DNA of 63,991 nt, filler included, from Dirinaria sp. TL-2023a (lineage: Eukaryota), in the NCBI GenBank assembly GCA_051941275.1. It is 3 parts of 3 records of this genome, joined end to end, with 100 filler letters (N's around TTAATTAATTAA, not from the genome) between each part and the next. Parts side by side here need not be neighbours in the genome. Positions count along the whole stretch, not along the records: positions 44,189 to 63,991 come from JAVEBF010000312.1; 2 more parts are not named here. One strand, 5' to 3'. A model generated the notes under the pieces. The model was not told where the DNA came from. It saw only the letters and a program-made list of their open reading frames with translations, and ran no database searches. A program made the position numbers and the translations under genes. Below, one piece after another: positions 11,855-53,439 of this stretch (positions within the stretch are counted from its first letter, which is position 1; each line of letters opens with the position of its first letter).

Positions 11855-14800
11855 ATGGACCCTCTTTCGCTTGCATTCGGAGTCGCCGGAGTCTTGGGTC
11901 TCCTCGGGCAAACATTAGCAACCACCAAAAGATTTGTACACTTATTGAGGCACGGTAAGGAAGCTGCGGCTGAATTACAAAATGAGCTTACTATTCTCCA
12001 TTTCAATGTGTCACGGCTGGATCGCATGCTCAAAGACAGCGCCCATGGAACCCTTCATTTCGAAGCTACTTCCGTGCTCTTGTCAAGTACCTTTACTTTC
12101 AAAGACAGGCTAGATGCTTTGTGTAATGAGCTCCGTGCTGCAAGCACGAGCCGGTTTGCGTCCCTCAAGTGGCCACTGAACAGCAAGGAGCATCGTGAGA
12201 CCATCCAAGACCTTCGAGCTTACGCTCAATGTGTTCAATTTTCTTTGAGCAACGATGGTTTTGCATTGCTCTCGAAGACGGCGACTGAAGTGCAAGATGT
12301 TTTGAGCAAACAATTGGAAGCTTTTCGGATCCTCGAAGCCATCAATCATCGGACTTCGTGGGCTGAGCACTCGTTATCAGAGCAGACTCAAGCGGTCAAC
12401 GATCAACTTTCCGCTGAGAAGCGTAAATCAGTCTTGAATTGGATCTCAACCGTCAAGCATGAACAAAAGCATCATGACATACGCACGCCTCGGATTGAAG
12501 CAACCGGTCAATGGTTTCTCGATCAAGGCCATTTCAAGCGTTGGCGCGATGAACCGTATCCACAGAGCACCGTACTACTCTGCGAGGGTATCCAGGGTTC
12601 TGGAAAATCGGTGCTAACGTGAGCATAACATTATTCTGCTACAACGAAGTTCTGCTGATTGCGTCAAGATCACTTGTCATCGATCATTTGATGGATAACC
12701 ATGCGAGCCAGACTATCGCGGTGGCTCATGTCTACTGCGACTACAGGGAGAGTGAAGATCAGTCAGCGGAGAAGCTGATTGCGAGTTTGCTGAAACAACT
12801 GGCCATTGCCAGACCGAATCTACCTCAAGCAGTAAAGGATTTTCACCTGGATTTTGAAAAGCAGATGAGGCAGCCTCAGCAGCAAGATTTTGAACGGGCT
12901 TTTCTACTCACGTGCAATGACTTTGACAGAGTTTACGTTGTGATAGACGCTTTAGATGAGTGTGCTGCAAGTCATAGAAGAAAATTATTGGGCTTTCTTT
13001 CAACCGCTCGGAGACAGCCTTCTATCAGAATCTTCATTACAAGCAGATCCTACCCGGAGCATATTATCAAACAATTCCATCCCGCCCAAAAATTAGTTAT
13101 TGAAGCTGACGAATCGGATTTGAGAAAGTACATTATTCAAGCGGTCGAGGACAGTGACAACTCAGAAGCGATAGACAATGAGTTCCAGCAAGTGATAGTC
13201 GAGAGGGTTTGTGCAGCGGCAAAGAATATGTAAGTTCATCATTCACTTGTCCCGTGAATTTGAATGCACAATGATCTGATTGGCTTGTCGGGACCCAAAA
13301 GAAGAGTTGCATGATCACTGCTTGAACGGTCTCTTAATCAAGGGAAGGTCCAGTATTACACACACTCGTAGAAATTTGATTCCATCGTACGGCGGCAGAA
13401 AAGCATGCTGTTTCATCATTGAAGACTTTTTGAATGATCTGGCTGATTTTTCCACAGGTTTCTTCTGGCGGTGTTGCAGATAAACGCCGTTTTGAACGGC
13501 GTGTCCGCCGGTGAAATGGAAGCAGCTCTGGAAACTATGCCCTGCGGCCTTGATGGGGCTATCGAAGAGACGTTGCACAGAACCCAGCAGCAACAATCAA
13601 GCAGGAAGAACCTTAGTGTGAAAGCATTAATGTGGATATCCTACGCTAAGAGACCGTTACGTGTAGACCAATTGGCCGACGCACTTGCTATCAATTCAAC
13701 AGACCGGACATGGAACCCACGGAACCGTCCTGATTCTAGGCTAATCCTGGAGTCTTGCTTGGGACTTGTAACTTTAGACCAGGAAAGCTCTGTCATTAGG
13801 CTAGTCCATTATTCCGTTCAGGAGTACTTCATTCGGCATCGAAAACAACTATTTCCAGCTGCAGAGGAGATGATTGCGGAGAACTGCCTCACTTCTCTTC
13901 TCCACGATGCTTTCGATACAGGTAGTTGCGTGGACGAGAGCGCTATCCTATCGTGTGTATCAAACTTCCCTTTCTATCTATATAGCTGTCGTTACTGGGG
14001 CCATCACGTCCGAGAAGTGGACAGCACAAGGATTGATCAGCTAGCGATGATTTTTCTTGAGGCGCGACCACATTTAGCTCGCTCATACCAGCTCTCGCAA
14101 TGGGATCTTGGCCGCAAGAGAGTCTACTGGGAGCTAGATGAAGCTAACAGCTGCACCGGTCTTCACTTAGCCTGTGTTTTTGGGCTGGAGCAACTTGCAA
14201 AGAAGCTTCTAGAGAAAGCTAGCCTTCCTATTGATGTCACTACCACCATGGGAACGACGCCGTTGATCAAGGCGGCAGCTGGCGGACACAGAAGCTGCGT
14301 AAGGATGTTGATGGAGAGGGGTGCCGATCCTTTGAAAGAAAATTGGTATGGAATCAGCCTGCACTGTGCGGCTGAAGCTGGTCATGTGCCGGCTATCGAA
14401 GAGCTGCTGTGTAATGGGGTGCCTGTGGACATCAAAGATGCTCACGGACGAACCGCCTTGCACTGTGCCACATCAACTGGCCACATCGGTGCCGTAAATG
14501 CATTGCTTTCACAAGCAGCTGATGTAAACGCAACGTTTTCGGACAGGACGCCGTTGCTCCTAGCTATATGTCTGGAGCAACGTATCGAATTGATCAAGAC
14601 CCTCCTTGAATACCACGCGGATATAGAGTTTGAAACCGAACATGGTGATAGGGCCGTCCATGAAGCAGCTACTATGGGTGCGGAGCAGACACTCTTACTG
14701 CTTTTAAAACACGGGGCAAAAGTTGACATGAAAGATGCCTCGGGTTTTACGGCTCTGCATTGGGCCGCAGCAAAGGACCATGCTAGCATCGTTCGGCTTC

Positions 14801-15244
14801 TGATAGAGCATGGTGCAACAATCGATGCAAAGTCAAACGAGGCGGCTACGCCGCTCCTCTGCGCAGCTGAAGAAGAAAGCGTTGATAGCGTGAAGGTTCT
14901 ATTGCATGCAGGTGCCGATGTCGAAGCTGGAGACGACGACGATTATACACCACTTCACGCTGCAATTAGCAGACACGATACTGGCATTGTGCGCATGTTA
15001 CTCGAAGCTGGGGCCAACACTGAAAGAAAGAACAAAGCTGGTGACACAGCTATAGTACTCGCACATCGCGAAGGCAAGGATGTAAAAATTATAGACTTAG
15101 TTCAGGCTGCAGGGAAGCTGGCGAGATTTGGACGGAAGCGACGACACTTAGAAGGTCTTTTCAAAGCTCAGGTAAGTCTTTTCAACTGAAGAATGATGAC
15201 GGATATTCATTGTCACACAGGATTTTGGGAGATTTCTAAAATAA
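11855..15244 (+). CDS. Fungal NLR-like STAND protein: HeLo-like N-terminus + NACHT + ankyrin repeats
   Basis: N-terminus MDPLSLAFGVAGVLGL; Walker A GIQGSGKS; Walker B VYVVIDALDEC; MFLLAVL and RLVHYSVQEY NACHT motifs; about 8-9 ankyrin repeats (TPLIKAA, TALHCA, TALHWAA, TPLHAA). Introns 12619-12668, 13230-13457 and about 15172-15220. Confidence 0.9.
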
Positions 15245-22003: not shown

Positions 22004-22103
22004 NNNNNNNNNNNNNNNNNNNNNNNNNNNNNNNNNNNNNNNNNNNNTTAATTAATTAANNNNNNNNNNNNNNNNNNNNNNNNNNNNNNNNNNNNNNNNN
22101 NNN
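22004..22103. other. Artificial contig-joining spacer (N44-TTAATTAATTAA-N44)
   Basis: Exactly 100 bp, with a six-frame stop linker flanked by N runs; identical to 44089-44188. Confidence 0.97.
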
Positions 22104-33504: not shown

Positions 33505-36500
33505 ATGGACCCGCAACAGAATCTTGGAGTCCCGGGCCAGCCTGGCCGGCGGCTCCACATCGCCCATAGGCGTAGTCCGTCCGAGATGACGCCTATGATA
33601 AGTAAGTCATCTGATGTCTGGGCAACACAGGCCACGCACCTCGTCTGCACTCTGGGCGCTGTGAAATCCCGATTGGTTCTATGGTCACTGACACTGGTTT
33701 CGATTAGTGGAACAACTTGCTCTGCAGCAGCAGATCGAGCTCCTTCAGCAGCAACAACAGCAAATCGCTGCCACCCACCAACAATATGTGAACATGGGAA
33801 TGATCCCGCAGCAGCAGCAGATTCCAGCCGTCAACTATCCCGGCCAGCAAGTCCACCAAGGGCAAGTATCCATGGCCGGCATGTCACCTCATGCGAATGC
33901 TTTCCAATTCCCGCAGCAAATGCAACAGCAACAGCAGCAACAGCAGCAGCAATTGGGGGTACCAATGAACGCTCCTACTCAGCCTTCATCGCATCGTCGA
34001 AACCAATCTGCACTGCCAAATGTGAACATGGGCCCACCGCCTGCACCTTCATCAGGGGCATCCGGATTTGGTGACTTCAATCAGAATGCAGTGGCACAGA
34101 ACCGAGAGAATGCGCCACAACGCGGAGGTCGTGGTGGAGGGCCACCGGGGGCCGGCCACCAACGTCGGCATTCTCTTGCTTTACCCGAAGCAAAAAAAGC
34201 AGCCGAGCTTGCACAGCAAAAGCGAACTACCTCAGGGTTCCAATTCCCCATTCCTGGAGGGTCAGGCGCTTCTCCGACCAGTGCAAATAGGAACCTTAGT
34301 CCAGCTGGATCTGACGATAAAGGTACGGATAGTCCATCATCGGGACAGTCGAATTCAGCAGGTCTGAGCGTCCGTGCAGGTAACCGCGGAGCTGGAACCG
34401 CCGGTCATGGCAGAAGTCAGAGCATGGCAGTGGGTAATGGCCGTGGTATGCCTCAAGGTCGAGGGGCTGGTAGCTTTCAATTCCCTCCTCCGATGGCCAC
34501 AAACGATGCTGGAGCGAACACGGCTCAGCAGTCGGACTTCCAGCGCCGCGGTAGCCAGAATGGCCACAACCGTACGTCGTCCAGGAATTTTGATGGCAAC
34601 TGGCGACAACAGAACAATGCCCAGACCGCTCAGGAGCAGCAGCAGCAGACCATGGGAAACTTTTCCGCCCCTCAGAACCCCAACGCCAGCGTTTTCCAGC
34701 CTGGCCACAGAGTTCGAGGATCTATGAATCAGTCAATCGGCTCTATGAATGGTTTCACCTTTCCCAATCAGCCGCAATTGGTCCAGCTACCGCAGGGCCA
34801 GGTAATGCTCCAACAACCTCAAGTCTTCACCGGGCAGCAACTCAACCCCATGCAATTAAATCAATTACAAGCGCTGCAAGCGGCGCAAATGAGCGGGCAA
34901 CAATTCAATCTTCAGGGCGTCCAGCCTCAGCAGCAGCTGTCGAACCAACAACAACAGCGTAAAACTCTTTTTACCCCTTACCTTCCGCAAGCGAGTCTCC
35001 CAGCCTTGCTGTCAGATGGTCAACTCGTGGCTGGTATCCTACGAGTGAACAAGAAGAATCGAAGCGATGCATATGTGACTGCTAGCGATCTTGACGCCGA
35101 TATCTTCATCTGTGGAAGCAAGGATAGGAATCGGGCTCTGGAAGGAGATTACGTGGCAGTTGAGCTTCTTGACGTGGATGAGGTTTGGGGCCAGAAACGG
35201 GAGAAGGAAGAGAAAAAGAAGCGCAAAGACATAACCGACACTAGGACTGGTGGAAGTAGCAATCTTAGTGAAAAGCCTTCTCGAAGCGATTCTGGCGCCA
35301 ACGGAGACGCTAGTCAGGTTGGTGGCCACGAGGGTGGTATAAGAAGAAGAGGCAGCTTGAGGCAAAGGCCTACACAGAAAAAGAACGATGACGTGGAGGT
35401 AGAAGGTCAGAGCCTCCTGTTAATGGAGGAAGAAGAGGTCAACGACGAACAAAAACCCCTGTATGCCGGTCATGTTGTGGCTGTCATTGAGCGCGTCGCA
35501 GGGCAGATGTTCTCGGGGTGAGGTCGCCTCAGTGTGTTTGAATCTGAAACTTTGCTGACATCTTGTAGCACCCTGGGCCTGCTGCGTCCTAGCAGCCAAG
35601 CAACTAAGGAGAAGCAAGAGGCCGAAAGACAGCAACGTGAAGGAAGCTCCGGCCGTCATCACCAAGACCGCCAGCAAGACAAGCCAAAGATCGTATGGTT
35701 CAAACCTACCGATAAACGCGTACCGCTGATTGCTATCCCTACCGAACAAGCTCCACGAGATTTTGTGGAGAGGCATCAGGACTATGCCAATCGTATCTTT
35801 GTTGCCTGCATAAAGCGCTGGCCGATCACCTCACTTCACCCTTTTGGCACCCTAGTAGAATTATTGGGTGAAATGGGAGATTTGAAAGTTGAGACTGACG
35901 CGTTGCTTCGAGATAATAACTTTGGCCCTGATGATTTCTCCGAAGCTGTATTGAAAAACACCGGCTTCGATGACTGGGCCGTCAGTAAGGAGAGTGAGGA
36001 AGCACTTGCCGCACGACGAGATTTCCGGTCTGAGACAACTTTTACTATTGACCCGAATGGCACAGAAGATTTCGACGATGCGCTTCATGTCAAAGACTTA
36101 GGTGATGGCAGGGTTGAAATTGGTATTCACGTGGCTGATGCCGCACATTTCGTGAAGGCCAACTCCCTAGTTGATCGCGAAGCGAAGAAGCGCGGTACAG
36201 GTGTTTACCTCATGAATCGTGCTGTCAACATGTTACCTCCAAAGCTCGCTTCGGAAGTCTGTTCTTTGAGCCCAGGTGAAGAGCGTTTCACTGTCAGTGT
36301 CGTCTTCACAGTCGACTTGGCAAGTGGCAACGTTATTGACAACGAAGCTTGGATTGGCAAAGCAATGATCAAGAGTGCTGGTAAATTGACATACGATGAT
36401 GTGGATGCTGTGATACATGGTAAAGAGGGAGTGGAGCTTCAGGGCGCAACTCCCAAAGACATCCAAATATTGAAGGTAGGTATCCATGACAACCTTGCAG

Positions 36501-38028
36501 TTGGGCTGAATTGACTGTCTCTCCAGAAAATTGCACAGAGATTTCGCGAGGCTCGGTATGGCTCTCGAAGTGAATATGTACCACCTCTTCGCTTGCTTCA
36601 TCAGCTTGATGATGAGAATGTTCCTGTGGAGCATAATATCTTCGACTCAACCCCGGCACACGAGATTATCGAAGAGTTGGGCCACAAGGCAAATGAGTAT
36701 GTAGCTAGAAAGATCGCTAATGCTTTGCCCGAGAAAGCCTTCCTTCGTCGCCAGGCTCCGCCAAATCCTCGGAGACTCCAGACATTTGCAGAGCGAATGA
36801 CAAGGATAGGGTACGAGATTGATACCACTAGCAGTGGTACCTTACAGAACAGCCTTTTCAACGTCAAGGACCCCGAAATCCGAAAGGTATATCACTGCTG
36901 TTGATGATCTTTGAGCTGCTATAGCTAACATTAGCTAGGGTATGGAGACACTACTCGTCAAAGCCATGCAGAGAGCCAAATACTTCGTTGCAGGACGAAC
37001 TCGCCAAGAACAATATCCACATTACGCTTTGAACCTGCCGCTATATACTCACTTTACCAATCCCTCCCGCCGTTATGCAGATATCGTCGTCCATCGACAG
37101 CTCGAGGTAGCTTTGTCGAATGGAGCTATGGAGTTTAATGAAGACATAGATAGCCTTGGTAAGACAGCAGAAGCCTGCAACACCAAGAAAGACTCAGCGC
37201 AGAGCGCCCAGGAGCAGAGCGTCCACATCGAATCTTGTCGAATCATGGACAAGAAGCGTGAGGAGCTAGGCAGTGACTTCATCAGCGAAGGCATCGTTAT
37301 TTGCGTCTATGAGTCCGCCTTTGATGTTCTCATTCCCGAGTATGGCTTCGAAAAGCGTGTGCACTGCGATCAATTACCACTAAAGAAGGCCGAATTCCGC
37401 AAGAACGAACGCGTACTCGAACTTTACTGGGAGAAGGGTGTGCCATCGTCTGCTTACGTGCCGGAGGACGAGCGCCAGAAAGCAGGTCCCGGATCGCGAT
37501 ACCAGAGGGGCGGTGCTCCAGCAACCGCAACAGACACTGCTTCGCAGCAATCGCGTGAGGATGCGCAACGTCGCCAAATGGATACCGGTACCATGTCAAC
37601 TGACGACGTCGACGCTCTTTTCGACGATGAAGACTCGGTTTCCGAGGTCACGGGTATGACTGCTGGTGTATCCCTTGGCGCTGGACGTCCGACACAAAGC
37701 ATGCCTCCTTCTCCAACCCGGGTCGATTCAGATAGTGATGCCAATCGCCAACGGACTCGCTCGGATCCAAGGTTTGCTTCAACCTCTGGGGAGAACCCGG
37801 AGGCCAAGTTGAGTAACAAGGACAAATACTTGGGTATGTTTAAGCTTCGTGAAGAAGGTGGGGAGTACATCCAGGACGTTACGGAAATGACGCGGGTGCC
37901 CGTGATTTTGAAGACAGACCTCACCAAGAGCCCACCGTAAGCTATCGCCCATGATTATTGTTGAGAAACAGCTAACAGGTGTGTGAAGGTGCCTAACTAT
38001 CCGATCGATGAACCCATATGCTTTGTAG
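33505..38028 (+). CDS. SSD1: Ssd1/GUL-1 RNase II-like (inactive RNB) mRNA-binding protein (multi-exon)
   Basis: HRRSPS, HRRNQS and HQRRHS Cbk1/COT-1-type sites; polyQ N-terminus; RKTLFTPYLPQA, GILRVNKKNRSDAY, IVWFKPTDKRVPLIAIP and YTHFTNPSRRYADI; C-terminus CLTIRSMNPYAL* (38028). Confidence 0.95.
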
Positions 38029-44088: not shown

Positions 44089-44188
44089 NNNNNNNNNNNN
44101 NNNNNNNNNNNNNNNNNNNNNNNNNNNNNNNNTTAATTAATTAANNNNNNNNNNNNNNNNNNNNNNNNNNNNNNNNNNNNNNNNNNNN
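44089..44188. other. Artificial contig-joining spacer (N44-TTAATTAATTAA-N44)
   Basis: Same 100-bp structure as 22004-22103. Confidence 0.97.
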
Positions 44189-44227: not shown

Positions 44228-44353
44228 TTGGTGAGCTTGGGTGGGTTGGCGAGCTTGGATGGGTCGGTGGGTTTGGATGGGTCGGTGGACTTGGGTGGTT
44301 TGGTGAGCTTGGGTGGGTCGGTGGGTGGGTCGGTGGGTTGGTCGGTGGGTTGG
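44228..44353 (+). repeat. G/T-rich degenerate short tandem repeat (GGGTCGGTGG / GAGCTTGGGT units)
   Basis: Visible 12-18-nt periodic repeats of GG-runs near the contig start. Confidence 0.8.
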
Positions 44354-44564
44354 CTGCATTACTAACCGGACATTGGGGTGGACGAGGCGCTTGCCATGGT
44401 TAGGAGGACGAGCCTTTTGGCATGGGGTAGGTCCGGGCTGGTGGCTCGACGGTTTGGGTAGGGTGGTAAGTCTTTTGTTCCCTTCCTTCAACCCAACTAC
44501 CCCTGGCTAACCTACTTCCAGCTCCTACCCACTATTGACTCGGCATGCATTCAGTTGGTGCTGG

Positions 44565-45036
44565 GCTGCAGCGGCGTACTATAAGAGGGTTCTTCGGAAC
44601 ATTGACGGAGGTACGCCGTCTGTTTGAGGGTTCTGGGGCTGTAGCAGCGGCGTACCATAAGAGGGTTCTTAGGAACATTTACGGAGGTACGTCGTCTGCT
44701 TTAAGTCAGTGGCGCTGTCGCAGCGGTGTACCATAAGAGGGTCCTTGGGACATTGACGGAGGTACACCGTCTGGTTCAGGTCACTGAGGCTGTCTCAGCG
44801 GTGTACCATAAGAGGGTTCTTCGGAACATTGACGGAGGTACACCGTCTGGTTCAGGTCAATGGGGGTGTAGCGGCGGCATACCATAAGAGGGTCCTTGGG
44901 GACATTGACGGAGGTGTGTCGTCTGCTTGAGGTTGCTGGAGCTGTCGCAGTGGTGTACCATAAGAGGGTTCTTGGACATTGACGGAGGTACACCGTCTGC
45001 TTGAGGTTGCTGGGGCTGTGCTGCACGGTGTACCAT
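44565..45036 (+). repeat. Tandem repeat with a 75-76-bp period (6 full units plus 1 partial); each unit is a predicted hairpin
   Basis: ATAAGAGGGT anchor at 44581, 44657, 44733, 44808, 44884 and 44960; consensus GCAGCGGTGTACCATAAGAGGGTTCTTCGGAACATTGACGGAGGTACACCGTCTG. Confidence 0.92.
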
Positions 45037-45355
45037 TATCTGGGATTCTTGTGTGTAAGTTTCCTCATCTCCCACCTTACTGTGCCTCCGCTGGCCGGAT
45101 ATCACTCATGCAGAATAGGGGCAGCAAGGAACGAGCCAGGGTACGCGTCTGGTGTAAATGGCACACACTCAGTGTGACTGCTAGAGATCGCAGAGTACTT
45201 GCCACATGGCGTACCGATATCTGGGATCCTTGTGTGTAAGTCTTGTCCTTCCCTTTCTCCTGATCACGATCACACAACACTGATCACCGAGTAGGGGCAG
45301 CAAGGAAGGAGCCAGGGTACGTCTGTGTACGGCAAACCTGCATCTCAGTGGGATT
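45026..45355 (+). repeat. Degenerate direct duplication of about 180 bp
   Basis: TATCTGGGAT(T/C)CTTGTGTGTAAGT and TAGGGGCAGCAAGGAA(C/G)GAGCCAGGGTACG each occur twice, about 180 bp apart. Confidence 0.75.
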
Positions 45356-45490
45356 GCCTCGTGGTATCTGGGGGTTTGACAATGATGACGGCGAGACTCG
45401 CCATCTCGCCTGGTTCAATGTCTTGACGGCGGTGACGATGAGACTTGCCAACTCATCCGAGCCAATGTCTGGATCCTGACGGAAGTATTT

Positions 45491-45706
45491 GTCCGATTCA
45501 AATGGATCATTTGGGCACGGTCTTAAGTCCACATTCAAACTTCGTCGCTTGGGCCAGCCTCTGTCCGTTTCAAATGGACCATTTGGGCACGGTCCTAAGT
45601 CCGCATTCAAACTTCGTCGCTTGGGCCAGCGTCTGCCCGTTTCAAATCGACCATTGGGCACGGTCTTAAGTCCGCATTCAAACTTCGGCGCTTGGGCCAG
45701 CGTCTG
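45491..45706 (+). repeat. Tandem repeat with a 72-bp period, 3 copies
   Basis: CAAAT(G/C)GA(T/C)CA...GGGCACGGTC(T/C)TAAGTCC(A/G)CATTCAAACTTCG at 45499, 45571 and 45643; the third copy has a 1-nt deletion. Confidence 0.9.
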
Positions 45707-45730
45707 TGGAATCTGAGGGATTTGCGGGTT

Positions 45731-45875
45731 CTGGGGGTTTGCCATCTCCCGTCGCCAGGATGGTCGACTTTTCCTAGCATCCTGGTCCAGGTGATGTGCC
45801 GTGGGCTCTGGGGGCTTTGCCGTCTACCGTCGCCAGGTTGGTCGACTCTTCCTACCCTCCTGGTATAGGTGATGG
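45731..45875 (+). repeat. Tandem repeat of about 77 bp, 2 copies
   Basis: CTGGGGG..TTGCC.TCT.CCGTCGCCAGG.TGGTCGACT.TTCCTA...TCCTGGT..AGGTGATG occurs twice. Confidence 0.8.
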
Positions 45876-47831
45876 CTCGCATCAGTGCTGGTCACACGCT
45901 GATGCTTGTGGTGTCCGGCTTGACTCCACTATGTAGCGAGTCTTGTACTCGTTGCTTCGCAATGGTAGCTAGTCTACTCCATTGCTATCCACTGCCTTTG
46001 CATTGCCTCTTGTGCCCTTTTCATGGCCTTGGAGTTCCTGCAAAACTTTGGCGTAGTGGTAGATCAAAAGCAAGTATAGTCCCGAGTGTCTTACTTGCCG
46101 TGTCTTGCGAATCTCGGGCTGTGCCTGGGTATGAGCAGATGCACATTCTTTTCAAGTTTGGCCCTCGTGGCCTTACTTACAGTCATATCTCTATGAACTT
46201 CTGGGCTATGCCCGGTTGTGAGCAAGATATGCAATTTTTGGAAACTTTTCTGCCTGCTTTATGCGGGATCTTTAATTTTTTTTTTTCTTTTTTTTTTTTT
46301 TTCATCGGGTGCCTTTTGCTGGCTCAAGGGGATCTGGAGAAGGAAAAGAAAAGAAAAGAATGGTTGTGCTTGCGAGTGGAATGCAAGCATCAGGCTCTAT
46401 TATGTGGAAGACTTGCTTACTTTTGGGCACAGGCTCTAATGGGTGGTTGACCAGTTAACCTAAGGTACCGCTACTTCAGGTATGAGTGGATGCCCTGTAC
46501 CCTAAGATAATTCACTTGCCACACTAAACCCCATCCAAGCGGCTCCTCCCGTGCCTGCCCCCTTTACCCAGGCCCATTCAGAGCATATTGTCCCTGGGCA
46601 TGTGCCTTACATCACAACACACAAACAGCAGAAACAACCATCTCCTTCCTCGTCCTCGCCGCACCGCAGGCATTTTGTCTTAACAGGATTGGTTACCGGC
46701 TTCGTGAGCGTCTCGATCGACTGTGTTGGCTTGACTAAAATTATTCGTGTCGCTTCTGATCTGCTCTGCATATTGTAGCGTTGGTAGTAGATCGGTAGGT
46801 GGTAGGTTTTAGTATTTAGTATTTGTGGACTGCTGGAAATTCGTGATTAGTCCTGAATTTTTACTCAAGTCCCGTGCTGTGCTGATGCTAACAGGCAGGA
46901 AGGTCCAACGTACCTTTGGAAGTGTTCGTTTTTGGAAAGACGAAGATAGTGGTGGTGATGGTAGGCTGGTGCTCAAGGGAAAAAGAAACAGCCAGGGTTT
47001 TGAAAATGTTGGCTTTTGAAAGGTGGAAGATGGTGGTAGTGGTCGTGGTAGTAGGTTGGTGCTTAAGGGAAAAAGAAATAGCTAGGGAAAGTGGAATGCT
47101 TTATAGACAAAATATCAAGACTAAAAACGTGAGCCATGTCAAGTGAAACAGTCGTATCAGTATGAAACAGTGACTCGTTCACACCAAAAATCAAGCGAAT
47201 GTCCCAGAACCAGGGCAATTCATGACAACTGCAAACCGTGGGTTCGTGATTTCAAGGCCGGAACTTAGATATTCTGGTCACCGAGCAAAACACATGCAAG
47301 TGAATTGAACATCGTGACACAGAAGTACATCGGTTAGTCAGACACAAGTTAGACTGGAAACTTCGCAATAAAGAAGCGAAATCAGGCGAAGGAAGTACTG
47401 CGACTGGGTTCCTTCATTCCAGTATGTGAGTGATGCCTCGTGACAGAATCACGTAGGGAGTGAAACATTTGGTGTTGTGTGCATTGCCGCATCTGTCTGA
47501 GGACGAGGAGACTTGGCCAATTGAAGAAAAAAGAAGTACGCATAGGGATTCATATTGACATCCTGTATACAGTGAGATAGATAGTATACCTATAAAACAA
47601 GCCATGTCTGCGTTCGAAGAGGAAACAAATGGTGACGAAATTGCGAAGCTTTTCCAGATCAAACGAGAATCAAGCAATCATGCACTTGTGCCAGGAAGCA
47701 AGCTTCACTTTGACTCTTTGATGGATCCAGAACCGCTTCGTAGGCCAAGCTGTCCATTACCGTACAATATGTGTTCCACCTCATCTTATAATATAGTCCC
47801 TTTCATCAGCCCGTCCAGCTTTGGCATCGAT

Positions 47832-48014
47832 TTACATGACAGAGCAGCACGGAATTGGAATGATGCAGCATTCGCAATCGCATCCGCAACAGTCACAACC
47901 GAAGCACTTGGTTTGGCCCGTTTTGATGCTCGTGGGCTTCACGATAGACTCGATTGAAACGGCTGGATTGACGCTGTCAACAGGAGATGCGAGGATATTT
48001 GACTGCCCCTGCAT
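47832..48014 (-). CDS. 60-aa Cys-rich peptide ending in a CaaX prenylation motif (CCSVM)
   Basis: MQGQSNILAS...KCFGCDCCGCDCECCIIPIPCCSVM*; ATG in an ACG-ATG (A at -3) context; TATATAA on the minus strand at 48167-48161, about 150 bp upstream. Confidence 0.65.
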   Translation of the reverse strand: MQGQSNILASPVDSVNPAVSIESIVKPTSIKTGQTKCFGCDCCGCDCECCIIPIPCCSVM

Positions 48015-48592
48015 CGTGGATTGAGAGACAGCTCGGAAGGAATAGGCAAGCTCCAATGGTGTCGGTCGCCCTGCGACTTGTTTTAGCAACTAATCTTCTC
48101 TGCACATTAACTGCTTTCGAGAGGAAGACCTACTTTAGAAGCTGAGAAGAGATCACCCGATTATATAGTTTGGGAGGAATCGTGGGCGAGAGGTGCAGGT
48201 TCGGTCTGTACTCTTACTTAGGAGTCATAAGTTCTTATATATTTTAATGAGCGGTGCAAAAGCTTTCGAAAATCAAGAAGTAGATAAAATTGGGCCATGG
48301 GACGGAAACCTGCTGGAGGTTCGATGTGTCGGGAAAACGGAAAACCGGATTGCTCCTTCGCTATGATTAGCCATAGAGGGAGACACACGTAATACCCAAT
48401 TAGATTTGTGATTTTGTGAAGAAACGTGAAGATCCGCGCAGGGATGCGTTAGCCGTGGGCTAGCGATCCATTAGTCTTGAACATAGCAGTACCTTGATCT
48501 TCAACTTTCCTTGCCTTTAAACAACAAATGGCCGGAATTCAACTCAAATAGATTTGTGTATTGTATACCAGTTTTAAAAAGCCCTGGATGTA

Positions 48593-50275
48593 CTATGTTG
48601 CGTGAGTAGGTATCGAGGCAACAGCTTCAACCGGCGCTGATCCGGAAGGCCGCGCTTGCTCTGTTTGCTCCGTTTGCTCCGGCTGCTCATGAAATTGCGT
48701 AGTCGACTGCCGCTCTTGGTGCGCTTTCCACTGCGTATATATATCCAATGCGGCCTCGTACTCGTCGGGAACCCTATGGGCTTCCATTTCATCCTTGATA
48801 CCGAGTCTCACGAGACGCCACTTCCCCCAAAGGACCTTCAGCAGGCCCCCCACGCCAAGAATGAAAGCTATGAGTTGTCCAAGACTAGTTAGACTGTTTA
48901 GACCATCAATGTGATTCCAAACAATTGTGAGCTCAACCTGAACAATGAGTATGATAATGATCAACAGATTATAGATGGCACTGAGGATCCATAGCCTTGT
49001 TGCCATCTTCAGCGGGATTTGGTGTAATTGCACGTCAGAAGCTATCGCAACAGTTCTCCAATCCGGGGGCTTAGTCTTTTCTGCGAATTGGTACGAGCGA
49101 TGCAAAATGCGCGGCCAGATCAACAGCGGACCCTGAGCAAGCCCTGTAAGATGAACATGTAACCTCCAGCGCAAATGCATAGGGATGATCCCCCACGTAG
49201 ACCATATAAATATAGTATATAGACATTTTGAAAGGGGGACCAACCTCGTGTCTGCCGGGGGGTTGCGGTTCGGAATATAGAATCGCAAGAAGCCTCTCCA
49301 GAGGATAATCACGCGTTTTCGCCCAAGTAGAGCCTTGGGTGGCTGGCACTCTGTGAAGAGAGAATTGAGATATGATTCAGCCTCCAACACTGCAGACATA
49401 ATTTGCTCCTGTTGTGGGCTCATTATCGAAGTCTTTCTTTCTTTTCCTCGTTCCTCAGGGGGGCCATTCGTTGAAGGTAGGTCGCCGTTGGGCTCAGAGG
49501 CACTTGATGATTCCTCAACGCGACTACCTTTAGGCAATGGTGGTTCAGTGAGTGTTGGGCTTTGCTTCGCAGGTTCGGCAGGGACTCCTGCAATGGCTGA
49601 TTGATTGTTGGCGTTGATACCACCAGCAACCGAGCGAGCAGCTTCCACAAAGTCCAGTTGAGACTGCTTTCTTAAGAGTGAATGTAGGATATCCATCGGC
49701 GTGCTCGAACCAAGCACTAAGACTGACCATACAAGGCCCCATAATGAAAGGACTTGCATCACCGTTCTCATCCACCCATACATATTGGCTCGTACAAGAT
49801 AGCACGCATATGTTCCGCCTTTGTGGGTTGCAGCTCCCTGTGTAGCCGGACTTGTTGAATTTCCTACGAAACGTCTGCAAGGAGTAGGCCGCATTTCGTC
49901 AAGACCTTTCCACCAGAAAAAGATTGCAAATATGAAACCCCCATGGAAGATAGCGCTCTGTATAACCATGCGATCCCTTGAGATTCTCATGTACCGGCTT
50001 GTGAATCTGGTTTGCAAGAGACTGACCATCGCTATAACAACAGCGATATACAAGAGCAAGAACGCCTCGACCGCATAGGTTTTCCGTGCATTGTGTACAT
50101 AGATCAAGCCGACGACGGTTAAAGCGAATAAGAAAAGATTGTTCACTGATCGCTGGGCGTTCGCTTCGCGGTAATGAAAGTAATTGGCAAACCAGACAGC
50201 TAAAGCCTGGCTGTAATAACCGATCCGTATGCCAATTCCGTAGATGTCAGGATTCCCTGTAAAGCCGCATGCCAT
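48593..50275 (-). CDS. Multi-pass membrane protein of an uncharacterised fungal family
   Basis: Intronless ORF from MACGFTGNPDIYGIGIRIGYYSQ; about 5 N-terminal and 2 C-terminal TM segments (IIIILIVQVELTIVWN...SLGQLIAFILGVGG). Confidence 0.8.
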   Translation of the reverse strand: MACGFTGNPDIYGIGIRIGYYSQALAVWFANYFHYREANAQRSVNNLFLFALTVVGLIYVHNARKTYAVEAFLLLYIAVVIAMVSLLQTRFTSRYMRISRDRMVIQSAIFHGGFIFAIFFWWKGLDEMRPTPCRRFVGNSTSPATQGAATHKGGTYACYLVRANMYGWMRTVMQVLSLWGLVWSVLVLGSSTPMDILHSLLRKQSQLDFVEAARSVAGGINANNQSAIAGVPAEPAKQSPTLTEPPLPKGSRVEESSSASEPNGDLPSTNGPPEERGKERKTSIMSPQQEQIMSAVLEAESYLNSLFTECQPPKALLGRKRVIILWRGFLRFYIPNRNPPADTRLVPLSKCLYTIFIWSTWGIIPMHLRWRLHVHLTGLAQGPLLIWPRILHRSYQFAEKTKPPDWRTVAIASDVQLHQIPLKMATRLWILSAIYNLLIIIILIVQVELTIVWNHIDGLNSLTSLGQLIAFILGVGGLLKVLWGKWRLVRLGIKDEMEAHRVPDEYEAALDIYTQWKAHQERQSTTQFHEQPEQTEQTEQARPSGSAPVEAVASIPTHAT

Positions 50276-51238: not shown

Positions 51239-51922
51239 TTAGAATCTTCCAATTTCCCTCTTCAGCGTTTTCCATAACCTCTTGTCTTCCGCCTCAGCTT
51301 CCCATTTCCTCTTTTCGACCATCATCTCCTGATCAACTTGTTTTAATGCTTCCTCACCCAGCGTAATGAGCGCCTCCTTTACCCTCTCGCCCGTCTCTCT
51401 GCACGTTTGGATCTCTTCCCTTCCCCTCCTCACCTGCTCCTCCATCATCTGGATCAGAGTCTCCCTTGCTTGGTGCGGGCGATACTCATTGATCACCCTA
51501 TGCGCTTGTAGAAAGATATCCCGTAACTCATCCCATTTCCGTGCGTAGTCTGCGGGCTTGGTCGCAAGGATATGTGTCAAGGAGAGGAAGTGGAGAAGGA
51601 GAGACCGGGTAAGGGTTTTAAGCCGCTGGGGATCAGGTGTGGTAGAGGTGGGTTCCGAGGCATTGATGGAGTGAAGGGCGTTGAAGGAAGTATACTGGTC
51701 TTTTGGCGGTTGTGGTGGTATCAGGTAGCGGAGCTCAGTTGGTAGGGAGGCGATGTCGAGGGGAGGTGGCGATTTGGCTGGATGATCGGTTTGGGTTGAT
51801 GAACTCGAGGAGGCTCGAATTTTCTCTATACGAGCGAGGTTCTCTGGAGTAAAGGACTTGTAGAACGGCGGTGGTGCTGGGAAGGCGGCGCTTAATGCGC
51901 CGGCTGAGGGCTGCTCCGCCAT
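51239..51922 (-). CDS. MED7: Mediator of RNA polymerase II transcription subunit 7
   Basis: SAAFPAPPPFYKSFT, LRYLIPPQPP and HRVINEYRPHQARETLIQMME signature. Confidence 0.93.
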   Translation of the reverse strand: MAEQPSAGALSAAFPAPPPFYKSFTPENLARIEKIRASSSSSTQTDHPAKSPPPLDIASLPTELRYLIPPQPPKDQYTSFNALHSINASEPTSTTPDPQRLKTLTRSLLLHFLSLTHILATKPADYARKWDELRDIFLQAHRVINEYRPHQARETLIQMMEEQVRRGREEIQTCRETGERVKEALITLGEEALKQVDQEMMVEKRKWEAEAEDKRLWKTLKREIGRF

Positions 51923-52246
51923 CCGCTCGCTATAGCTTGGAGAGACATGCGGTGGATCTTCGAGGGGCAGCAGATCGATGCAAAGGACCGTGAAAGTTGC
52001 TAATAAAGTACCTCAAGTTGCTGTAATTATGAGTCTGGGGTAACGCGCTGTTTGCGCTTTAGCGCCCGTCACCAGGAACTGCCCAACGTGACCTCGGGAT
52101 GTCGTCACTTCCCTTTTGGGAACCAGACACTTCAACATTGAAATGATGTTCAATCCGAACATCGTGCAGCTTCCTTTGCCATGGCTTCCTCTTGAAACAG
52201 CATGATTCTTCGGTGAGCCGTTCTCCTAACGCGACCAAAGTCTGCG

Positions 52247-53439
52247 ATGGCTCGTCCACGCTCCGTAGCGAGTGGTCAGAAGGCCACTAAAAGTCAGGAG
52301 GCCGGCTTCCTGGGCTCAATAGCCAGATTCTTGCAGGTATACATGCAGTTTAGTGAGTGATGTCACACGGTTCACTAAGAGTGCCATAATAGAGATCCTA
52401 CGCGGCGGACTATGCTGGGTTTGCACTTCTACTGACCGGCTACATACTGGTAAGGTTTTACCTCCAGCTATGGTTCTCAAATTTTAACACGGAACCCAGA
52501 CTGAGATGGTGGCCGAGCCCTTCCATCGCATGTTCTCCCTTGACAATATCGCAATACAATTTCCTCATGCGAAGGTCGAGCGAGTTCCAGTCAGTATGAG
52601 TCCAAAATCCCTTTCCTGACTTTTGAAAGCTCATACCAACCAAGTCAGCATGGAATATCGTTTACGCAGGCATCGTACCGCTTTTCATTTTGATTTTCTG
52701 GGCCATAGCCTTCCGGCCTGGACTACACAAAGCCCACGTATCAATCCTTGGCCTCTTCATCAGTCTCATATTAGCCTCATTCCTTACGAATGTCATCAAG
52801 AACGCAGTTGGTAGGCCCAGACCGGATCTCATCGATAGATGCAAACCTAAGAAGGGAACGCCGCAGCACGAATTGGTCACTATTGATGTGTGTACGCAAA
52901 AGAGTCATCATGTGTTGCAGGATGGCTGGAGGTCGTTTCCTAGCGGACATAGTAGCTTCGCTTTCAGCGGACTTGGCTACTTGGCTTTGTACGGTTTGTT
53001 GGCTAATTTGACCATGGAAAGTGCTGACAGCGCCAGATTGCTTGCGGGCCAAATGCACGTCTTCCGGCCCCGCACAGACCTCGCCAGAGTGCTTCTTGCT
53101 CTTGCACCTTTGGTCGGTGCTGCTTTGATCGCCATATCCCGTTGTGAGGATTATCGACATGACGTCTACGATGTAACCGTTGGCTCAATCATCGGAATGC
53201 TTGTGGCCTGCTTTTCGTACAGGCGGTATTACCCCAGTCTCAAGTCATCACACTGCGACACCCCCTACCACAGTCGTGCAGACGCAGCTTCGGAAAGAGG
53301 CTATGGCAAGAGGAGAGACGAGGAAGAGCGTATTCAGAGTGCAGGCGACTTCGAGGCCGAAGACTTGGATGATGACTCAGAGCGCGTGCCATTACAGCAA
53401 GCAACAACAGATAAAGGGAGACTCGGAAGCCATTCGTGA
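52247..53439 (+). CDS. DPP1: PAP2-family lipid phosphate / diacylglycerol pyrophosphate phosphatase (multi-exon)
   Basis: Catalytic motifs KNAVGRPRPD, SFPSGHSS and SRCEDYRHDVYDV; EPFHRMFSLDN upstream. Start codon at 52247 inferred from the exon structure. Confidence 0.88.

Follow-up and report, generated by a model that had tools for sequence, protein, structure and literature searches.

A spliced gene for a small Cys-rich CaaX peptide

As listed in Table 1, a small ORF on the minus strand of the window encodes a 60-amino-acid peptide with ten Cys in its last 24 residues and the end C-C-S-V-M-stop. The window is the whole stretch of 63,991 nucleotides that was analysed. It joins separate pieces, so genes on either side of the N spacers (22004-22103 and 44089-44188) need not be neighbours; the contig carrying the small gene runs from 44189 onward. 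The original prediction had described the 60-amino-acid ORF, the Cys count, the CSVM end and a good start context, and all of these are borne out, with A at -3. It had left the strand unstated; this is the minus strand, and the plus-strand frame over 47832-48014 is interrupted by stops. Among the 770 ORFs of at least 15 amino acids that start with ATG in the window, 33 have Cys at -4 and three pass the canonical CaaX filter, one of which is the probable paralogue at 46607-46771. Only two other 24-residue stretches hold ten Cys, both antisense to a long ORF of the plus strand.

Table 1. Coordinates of the small gene, its probable paralogue and neighbouring genes in the window.
Feature	Position	Strand	Evidence or remark
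CDS of the 60-aa Cys-rich CaaX peptide, stop included	47832..48014	-	covered by RNA contigs
C56 and CaaX C57-S-V-M: predicted prenylation site with adjacent acylation site	47835..47849	-	sequence; modification inferred
Cys cluster, codons 37-50: CxxC knuckle, 4-residue insertion, C-x-C-C	47865..47906	-	alignment
S-I-E-S-I-V-K-P motif, codons 20-27, in the S/T-rich N-terminal half	47934..47957	-	conserved in alignment
Longest RNA contig (leader, CDS, ~290 nt of 3′ UTR)	47545..48312	-	strand deduced from intron ends
63-nt GT..AG intron in the 5′ UTR	48071..48133	-	joint in 3/3 RNA runs, one sample
Proximal TATA-like word (TATATAA)	48161..48167	-	inside RNA contigs; altered in relative
Distal TATA-like word (TATATAA)	48235..48241	-	inside RNA contigs; unaltered in relative
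Probable tandem paralogue, 54 aa, 6 Cys	46607..46771	-	~1.06 kb downstream of the gene, same strand
Predicted 81-nt 5′ UTR intron of the paralogue	46833..46913	-	sequence pattern only
TATA word of the paralogue	47100..47105		sequence pattern
560-aa intronless ORF with hydrophobic stretches, no Pfam family	48593..50275	-	between the small gene and MED7
MED7, conserved neighbour of the family	51239..52012	-	Pfam Med7, E 2.6e-45
PAP2 phosphatase, second conserved neighbour (approximate span)	52393..53436	+	Pfam PAP2, E 4.7e-27

The small minus-strand ORF is a real, spliced gene. RNA contigs covering it, one from each of three runs on one sample of a single study labelled lichen metagenome, are 90-95% identical to the window and come from a relative. 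The stretch compared with the RNA was 47000-48800, which ends short of the paralogue. The 63 nt that they skip read GT..AG on the minus strand, indicating a transcript of the ORF's own strand with an intron in its 5′ UTR. A missing transcript had been named beforehand as grounds for giving up the gene; spliced RNA contigs exist.

The CDS of the relative differs from that of the window by four synonymous and three non-synonymous changes (N6H, I7L, T32P). The relative retains all ten Cys as well as the CSVM end, with C56 and the CaaX unaltered, and the four indels between the two sequences all lie outside the CDS. pN/pS is about 0.2 (P=0.04 against neutrality), a value from only seven changes and thus thin evidence of selection, and the substitution density is not lower in the CDS (0.038) than in the 3′ UTR (0.032).

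A TATA had also been placed upstream of the ORF. Two such words are present, and both lie inside the RNA contigs, which give no start site. The nearer one is broken in the relative by a substitution and a 4-nt insertion. On this evidence the proximal TATA-like word is unsupported and is probably not the promoter.

Family membership, gene order and a Cys-expanded copy

Single-sequence searching for homologues gave no candidate protein, and the peptide had no match in Pfam or in PDB sequence searches. The sole phmmer match among 1.84 billion representatives, a 1685-aa repeat protein, was dismissed as spurious. Forty-four metagenome loci were found with a short motif pattern in which only the first base of the stop was fixed. 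The stop follows directly after the CaaX in 37 of them; the other seven were dropped as chance matches because no stop came next. Seventeen metagenome homologues align with the peptide at 39-50% identity. Profiles built without the query recognise it even after the search motif and all cysteines are removed, and the N-terminal part, which has no Cys, gets 13.1 and 14.1 bits from homologue-only profiles, values reached by 0 of 1000 shuffles.

The profile search gave 125 proteins, of which 120 were listed. Named homologues among the matches listed come from Leotiomycetes, Xylaria, Apiospora, Colletotrichum, Fusarium, Diaporthe, Claviceps, Ophiostoma, genera of the Sordariales and Myriangium; we take Myriangium to be a Dothideomycete and the genera before it to be Sordariomycetes. 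Judged by these matches, the family occurs across Sordariomycetes and in a Dothideomycete, which is new here. No named lichen fungus stands among the 120 listed of the 125 matches. Cys is at -4 in 84 of the 120 listed homologues, and the family ends mostly in CTVM, CVVM or CTIL; the terminal CaaX is missing from the remaining 36 listed entries, many of them apparently mis-spliced gene models. Two listed entries bear odd names, MUS-26 (P0051) and Metallothionein (P0019, from UniRef, with no evidence given). The usual member has 6-7 Cys in about 57 aa, or about 11% Cys. A 41-aa subtype with an extra Cys is found at seven loci (L002, L007, L008, L012, L021, L026 and L036) and groups with the Myriangium protein (100/98 support). 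At another locus (L037), the plus strand holds a further short Cys-containing ORF ending in CIVM, which may be there by chance. An intron-like pattern lies upstream in 11 of 20 homologue loci, compared with 4-8% in shuffles; it is only a hint, because the same pattern missed the proven intron.

The family is already in print. Wilson et al. (2023) proposed B. cinerea BCIN_13g03330, of unclear function, as a putative Leotiomycete a-factor and reported homologues in at least 111 Leotiomycetes (PMC10569646). Their proposal was based on size, an S/T-rich N-terminus, a GY motif and the CaaX, with GY near the C-terminus in 87 of the at least 111 published members (PMC10569646). This was the only paper in which a literature search by gene id and motifs found the family, most subscription journals lying outside the search. 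The original prediction thus stands in part: the small gene is real, conserved homologues keep both the Cys cluster and the CaaX, and a lipid anchor is likely by inference. The metal or redox binding and the export that it inferred stay hypothetical, the class is one already described, and the proximal TATA is unsupported.

By sequence and by MED7 linkage, the gene is an orthologue of the BCIN_13g03330 family. At 60 aa it falls within the family's 45-64 aa, and its CSVM corresponds to the terminal CAAX/CPAX (CTVM, CSVM and similar) of the members. By eye they share the S/T-rich N-terminus, S-I-V-K-P, G-[KQ]-T-K-C-x-x-C-D, C-C-x-I-P-I-P-C and the [TS]-V-M end, and the Atlas top cluster is equal in size and length for the query and a Leotiomycete member.

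MED7 adjoins 25 of the 37 homologue loci, convergent on the 3′ side and 213-683 b from the stop. Divided by type, the linkage holds for 25/30 loci of the main type, 0/7 of the 41-aa type (flanks examined) and 0/7 of the chance matches; the loci are non-independent, several being near-duplicates. PAP2 was matched in 11 of the 37. The window differs: MED7 lies 3.2 kb off with its orientation changed, and both it and PAP2 sit 5′ of the small gene at 3-5 kb, separated from it by a further gene. This 560-aa ORF had no tblastn match in the 44 homologue loci with flanks of up to 2.5 kb. The layout would be explained by a local inversion and an insertion. The best named relatives of the MED7 in the window are from the lichen-forming Heterodermia, Stereocaulon, Pseudevernia and Usnea, at 46-50% identity, so that the host is, by this one gene, probably a lecanoromycete.

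The copy in the window was compared in a 75-row alignment comprising 66 of the 120 listed proteins, eight loci and the query. The rows were picked as complete-looking, so the conservation of the CaaX in it is by selection. C37, C49 and C50 are invariant. Fifty-seven rows have the tail Cx2Cx4CCCx4C and 12 have Cx2Cx4CCCx2C; six Cys are usual in the tail, and ten are found in this copy alone (1/75). They were reached by a four-residue insertion, the replacement of a Tyr by Cys, and one more Cys ahead of the CaaX. Read from its codons, the insertion looks like a duplicated G-C-D-C unit. This copy is without the N-terminal Cys present in 50/75 rows, without N-G-P-G-S-A-A and without the GY near the C-terminus, which is found in 44 rows and is missing from 31. 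The final residue is M in 62/75 and L in 12/75, which suggests that either prenyl type may suffice. Two or three Asp/Glu among the cysteines are conserved in all 75 rows. The peptide has 16.7% Cys with CxC and CC clusters, one Phe, and no His, Trp or Tyr. No signal peptide or transmembrane stretch was seen by hydropathy (maximum 19-residue mean 1.48), and AlphaFold gave no confident fold (pLDDT 51.2, pTM 0.15). A tree of 58 columns leaves the query unplaced, on an end branch of 1.4 and in no supported set, and we therefore make no claim on its origin. The Cys-expanded copy is a new variant of a published but uncharacterised family.

A second, shorter ORF, absent from the original prediction, lies downstream on the same contig. 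It has S-I-E-x-x-x-K-P, K-T-K-C-x-x-C-G and a C-V-V-M end, and is without I-P-I-P. Its pairwise score with the 60-aa peptide is 70, which 0 of 2000 shuffles reach (maximum 53), and hhalign gave 79% and E 1.6e-5 for the pair. On the family profile it scores 9.0 bits, reached by 2 of 1000 shuffles; its Cys-free part alone is non-significant on that profile, being reached by 122 of 1000. The position of its predicted intron relative to the ATG matches that of the 60-aa gene, and such an intron pattern arises in 72 of 2000 shuffles. From these comparisons, 46607-46771 is a probable old tandem paralogue of the 60-aa gene. Searches of the own genome matched only the two ORFs themselves; with a Leotiomycete member as query there was no match, and this same search missed the known gene too. 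The leader of the paralogue contains a 61-nt direct repeat (46937-46997 and 47027-47087). At the start of the contig, 44230-45874 holds short tandem and direct repeat arrays with units of ~18, 72, 76 and 78 nt.

Candidate roles of the product

We give about an even chance to a product that is prenylated, S-acylated and membrane-tethered on the cytosolic side, with a free CxxC knuckle, and that acts like the yeast CYSTM/CYSPD proteins. Following general CaaX biochemistry, farnesyltransferase would prenylate C57, Rce1/Ste24 would remove SVM and Ste14 would then methylate the end. DHHC enzymes may S-acylate C56 and part of the C-C(-C) cluster, and the I-P-I-P spacer would lie in the membrane surface. 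The CxxC knuckle among Asp/Glu would stay free, as a Zn/Cu site or a thiol switch; the N-terminal half, S/T-rich, disordered and bearing S-x-x-S-I-V-K-P, would be exposed to a partner in the cytosol. The gene would have moved locally in this fungus, gained cysteines and probably been duplicated.

The Cys-rich tails of small yeast CYSTM/CYSPD proteins are palmitoylated, in competition with metal chelation (PMC10840359). Together with CaaX chemistry, this favours a doubly lipidated membrane peptide. Like Cpp1-3 of yeast (PF12734), the present peptides are small, with a Cys-rich C-terminus and a lipid membrane anchor, here a predicted one; metal chelation by the yeast proteins is proposed but unproven (PMC10840359). 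The two groups differ in that the present family ends in CaaX and has I-P-I-P, and the word 'CaaX' does not appear in the text of that paper (PMC10840359). Pfam CYSTM (PF12734) matched none of 18 family members, and in the Atlas the scores for CYSTM reach only 0.76-0.77. The Asp/Glu conserved between the cysteines count against acylation and would suit metal ligation better. In published data the M. fructicola orthologue is at 0 RPKM in 5/5 sets, which argues against a constitutive role.

The gene itself belongs, as the local orthologue, to a conserved, single-copy, MED7-linked micro-protein family of Pezizomycotina; that its product is a lipid-anchored cytosolic peptide and no pheromone we hold at about an even chance. 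In at least two fungal classes the family has retained its place next to MED7, and in Botrytis it is well expressed; it is without a Pfam model or a structure match. Whether the cysteines carry lipid or metal could be asked by comparing the Cys-expanded copy with its probable paralogue, a natural pair for the purpose.

It is unlikely that the peptide leaves the cell by the a-factor route, that is by prenylation, N-terminal cleavage and Ste6-type export, to serve a purpose other than mating, such as autocrine signalling or a cue in thallus development. In that case the Cys-rich tail behind the K-T-K motif would be the mature part. The general plan is that of an a-factor precursor, being short with an S/T-rich N-terminus, no signal peptide and a CaaX; conservation is much stronger in the C-terminal half than in the N-terminal half, and 86% of homologues have a basic residue before the first Cys. 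However, the N-terminal NGPGSAAS...SIVKP is also strongly conserved across classes, which would be unusual for a discarded pro-region, and the tail would carry 5 to 9 free thiols and two or three acidic residues, compared with one Cys per unit in the listed a-factors.

Fungal metallothioneins (Cup1, Neurospora MT) are small, with CxC and CC clusters and almost no aromatics, and the present peptide resembles them in these respects, against a family norm of only 6-7 Cys. Plant HIPPs carry a folded HMA domain. They pair this metal-binding domain with prenylation, so that a metal-type Cys motif and prenylation, the latter predicted here, occur in one chain in both; HIPPs are said to exist only in vascular plants, and the present peptide has no HMA match. 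That the peptide is a membrane-tethered metallothionein-like buffer, its cysteines mainly chelating Cu, Zn or Cd, and that ten Cys and a second gene are a lichen adaptation to metal load, is nevertheless unlikely. The high Cys content with few aromatics, the Cys gain by apparent unit duplication and the one UniRef entry named for a metallothionein are in its favour. Against it, the Cys of the family are confined to the tail and number only six or seven in the usual member, followed by the CaaX end; no Pfam metallothionein matched, and 586 b upstream contain no MRE or Ace1-like word. One data set on Cd gives weak evidence: the searched lists of Cd-regulated genes do not name the orthologue of O. 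maius Zn (id 122295), but these lists fall short of the p<0.05 totals of the paper and include no true metallothionein to serve as positive control (PMC7075258).

A broader conjecture, which we also regard as doubtful, is that the family represents an unnamed class of prenylated metal/redox-sensing micro-proteins of filamentous ascomycetes, a HIPP counterpart without HMA that was mistaken for an a-factor. Duplication and a near doubling of Cys in the lichen fungus would then have led to a membrane-bound metallothionein. If true, the real a-factors of Leotiomycetes and lichen fungi are still undiscovered.

The a-factor assignment

The Leotiomycete orthologues were put forward as a-factor from their size, S/T-rich N-terminus, GY and CaaX (PMC10569646); that this fungus has its true a-factor mating pheromone precursor in the present gene is very unlikely. 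No lecanoromycete a-factor was apparent in the literature covered by our search, and the present peptide resembles Neurospora mfa-1, Fusarium ppg2 and yeast MFA1 in being short, with a C-terminal CaaX and no signal peptide (by hydropathy for the query). It differs from them in that those precursors have no Cys cluster before the CaaX and share no motif with it by eye. The original prediction had remarked that a-factors lack such clusters, in agreement with the published a-factor list as far as available (PMC10569646). Moreover, the GY cited for the assignment is missing here and in 31/75 rows.

The family has entries in Colletotrichum asianum, C. gloeosporioides and C. orchidophilum too, as truncated gene models that match the N-terminal part, and for each of these species a different a-factor is listed, which may itself be a prediction (PMC10569646). 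It is likewise found in Fusarium and Sordariales, whose a-factor is ppg2/mfa-1 (PMC6562746); Sordariomycete a-factor precursors are thus present in the same genera as separate genes. Presence in Sordariomycetes, including the three Colletotrichum species with a different a-factor, and in a Dothideomycete indicates that the published pheromone label of the family is probably wrong. The family next to a different a-factor in Sordariomycetes challenges the published assignment and reopens the search for the a-factor in Leotiomycetes and lichen fungi. The wider value of the locus lies in this evidence that the family is not the a-factor.

Gene order and expression were also compared. In one family, as far as the source covers it, a-pheromone genes have no consistent synteny (PMC13037118), in contrast to the fixed MED7 linkage of the present family. 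Expression of the a-factor is MAT1-2-specific in heterothallic species (PMC6562746). The B. cinerea orthologue does not follow such MAT1-2 dependence, since in published data it reaches 180 RPKM in a MAT1-1 strain, in which ste3 is at 0; it is at 46-198 RPKM in mixed tissues.

Finally, an ORF present by chance, or a transcript with its coding frame elsewhere, has practically no probability left: single-sequence searches found no relative, but the spliced minus-strand transcript, the profile homology to a family and the MED7 linkage refute it, and an overlapping 117-aa plus-strand ORF loses both its ATG and its stop in the relative.

Two other genes were seen elsewhere in the window. Pieces of NACHT/NPHP3_N, winged-helix and ankyrin domains at 11855-15189 (+) mark a fungal NLR-like gene, and pieces of an RNB/Dis3L2-type exonuclease lie at 33794-37940 (+). 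Near 33800-33980 the minus strand shows poly-Cys runs, which are probably antisense to triplet repeats within this RNB/Dis3L2-type gene or immediately ahead of it.
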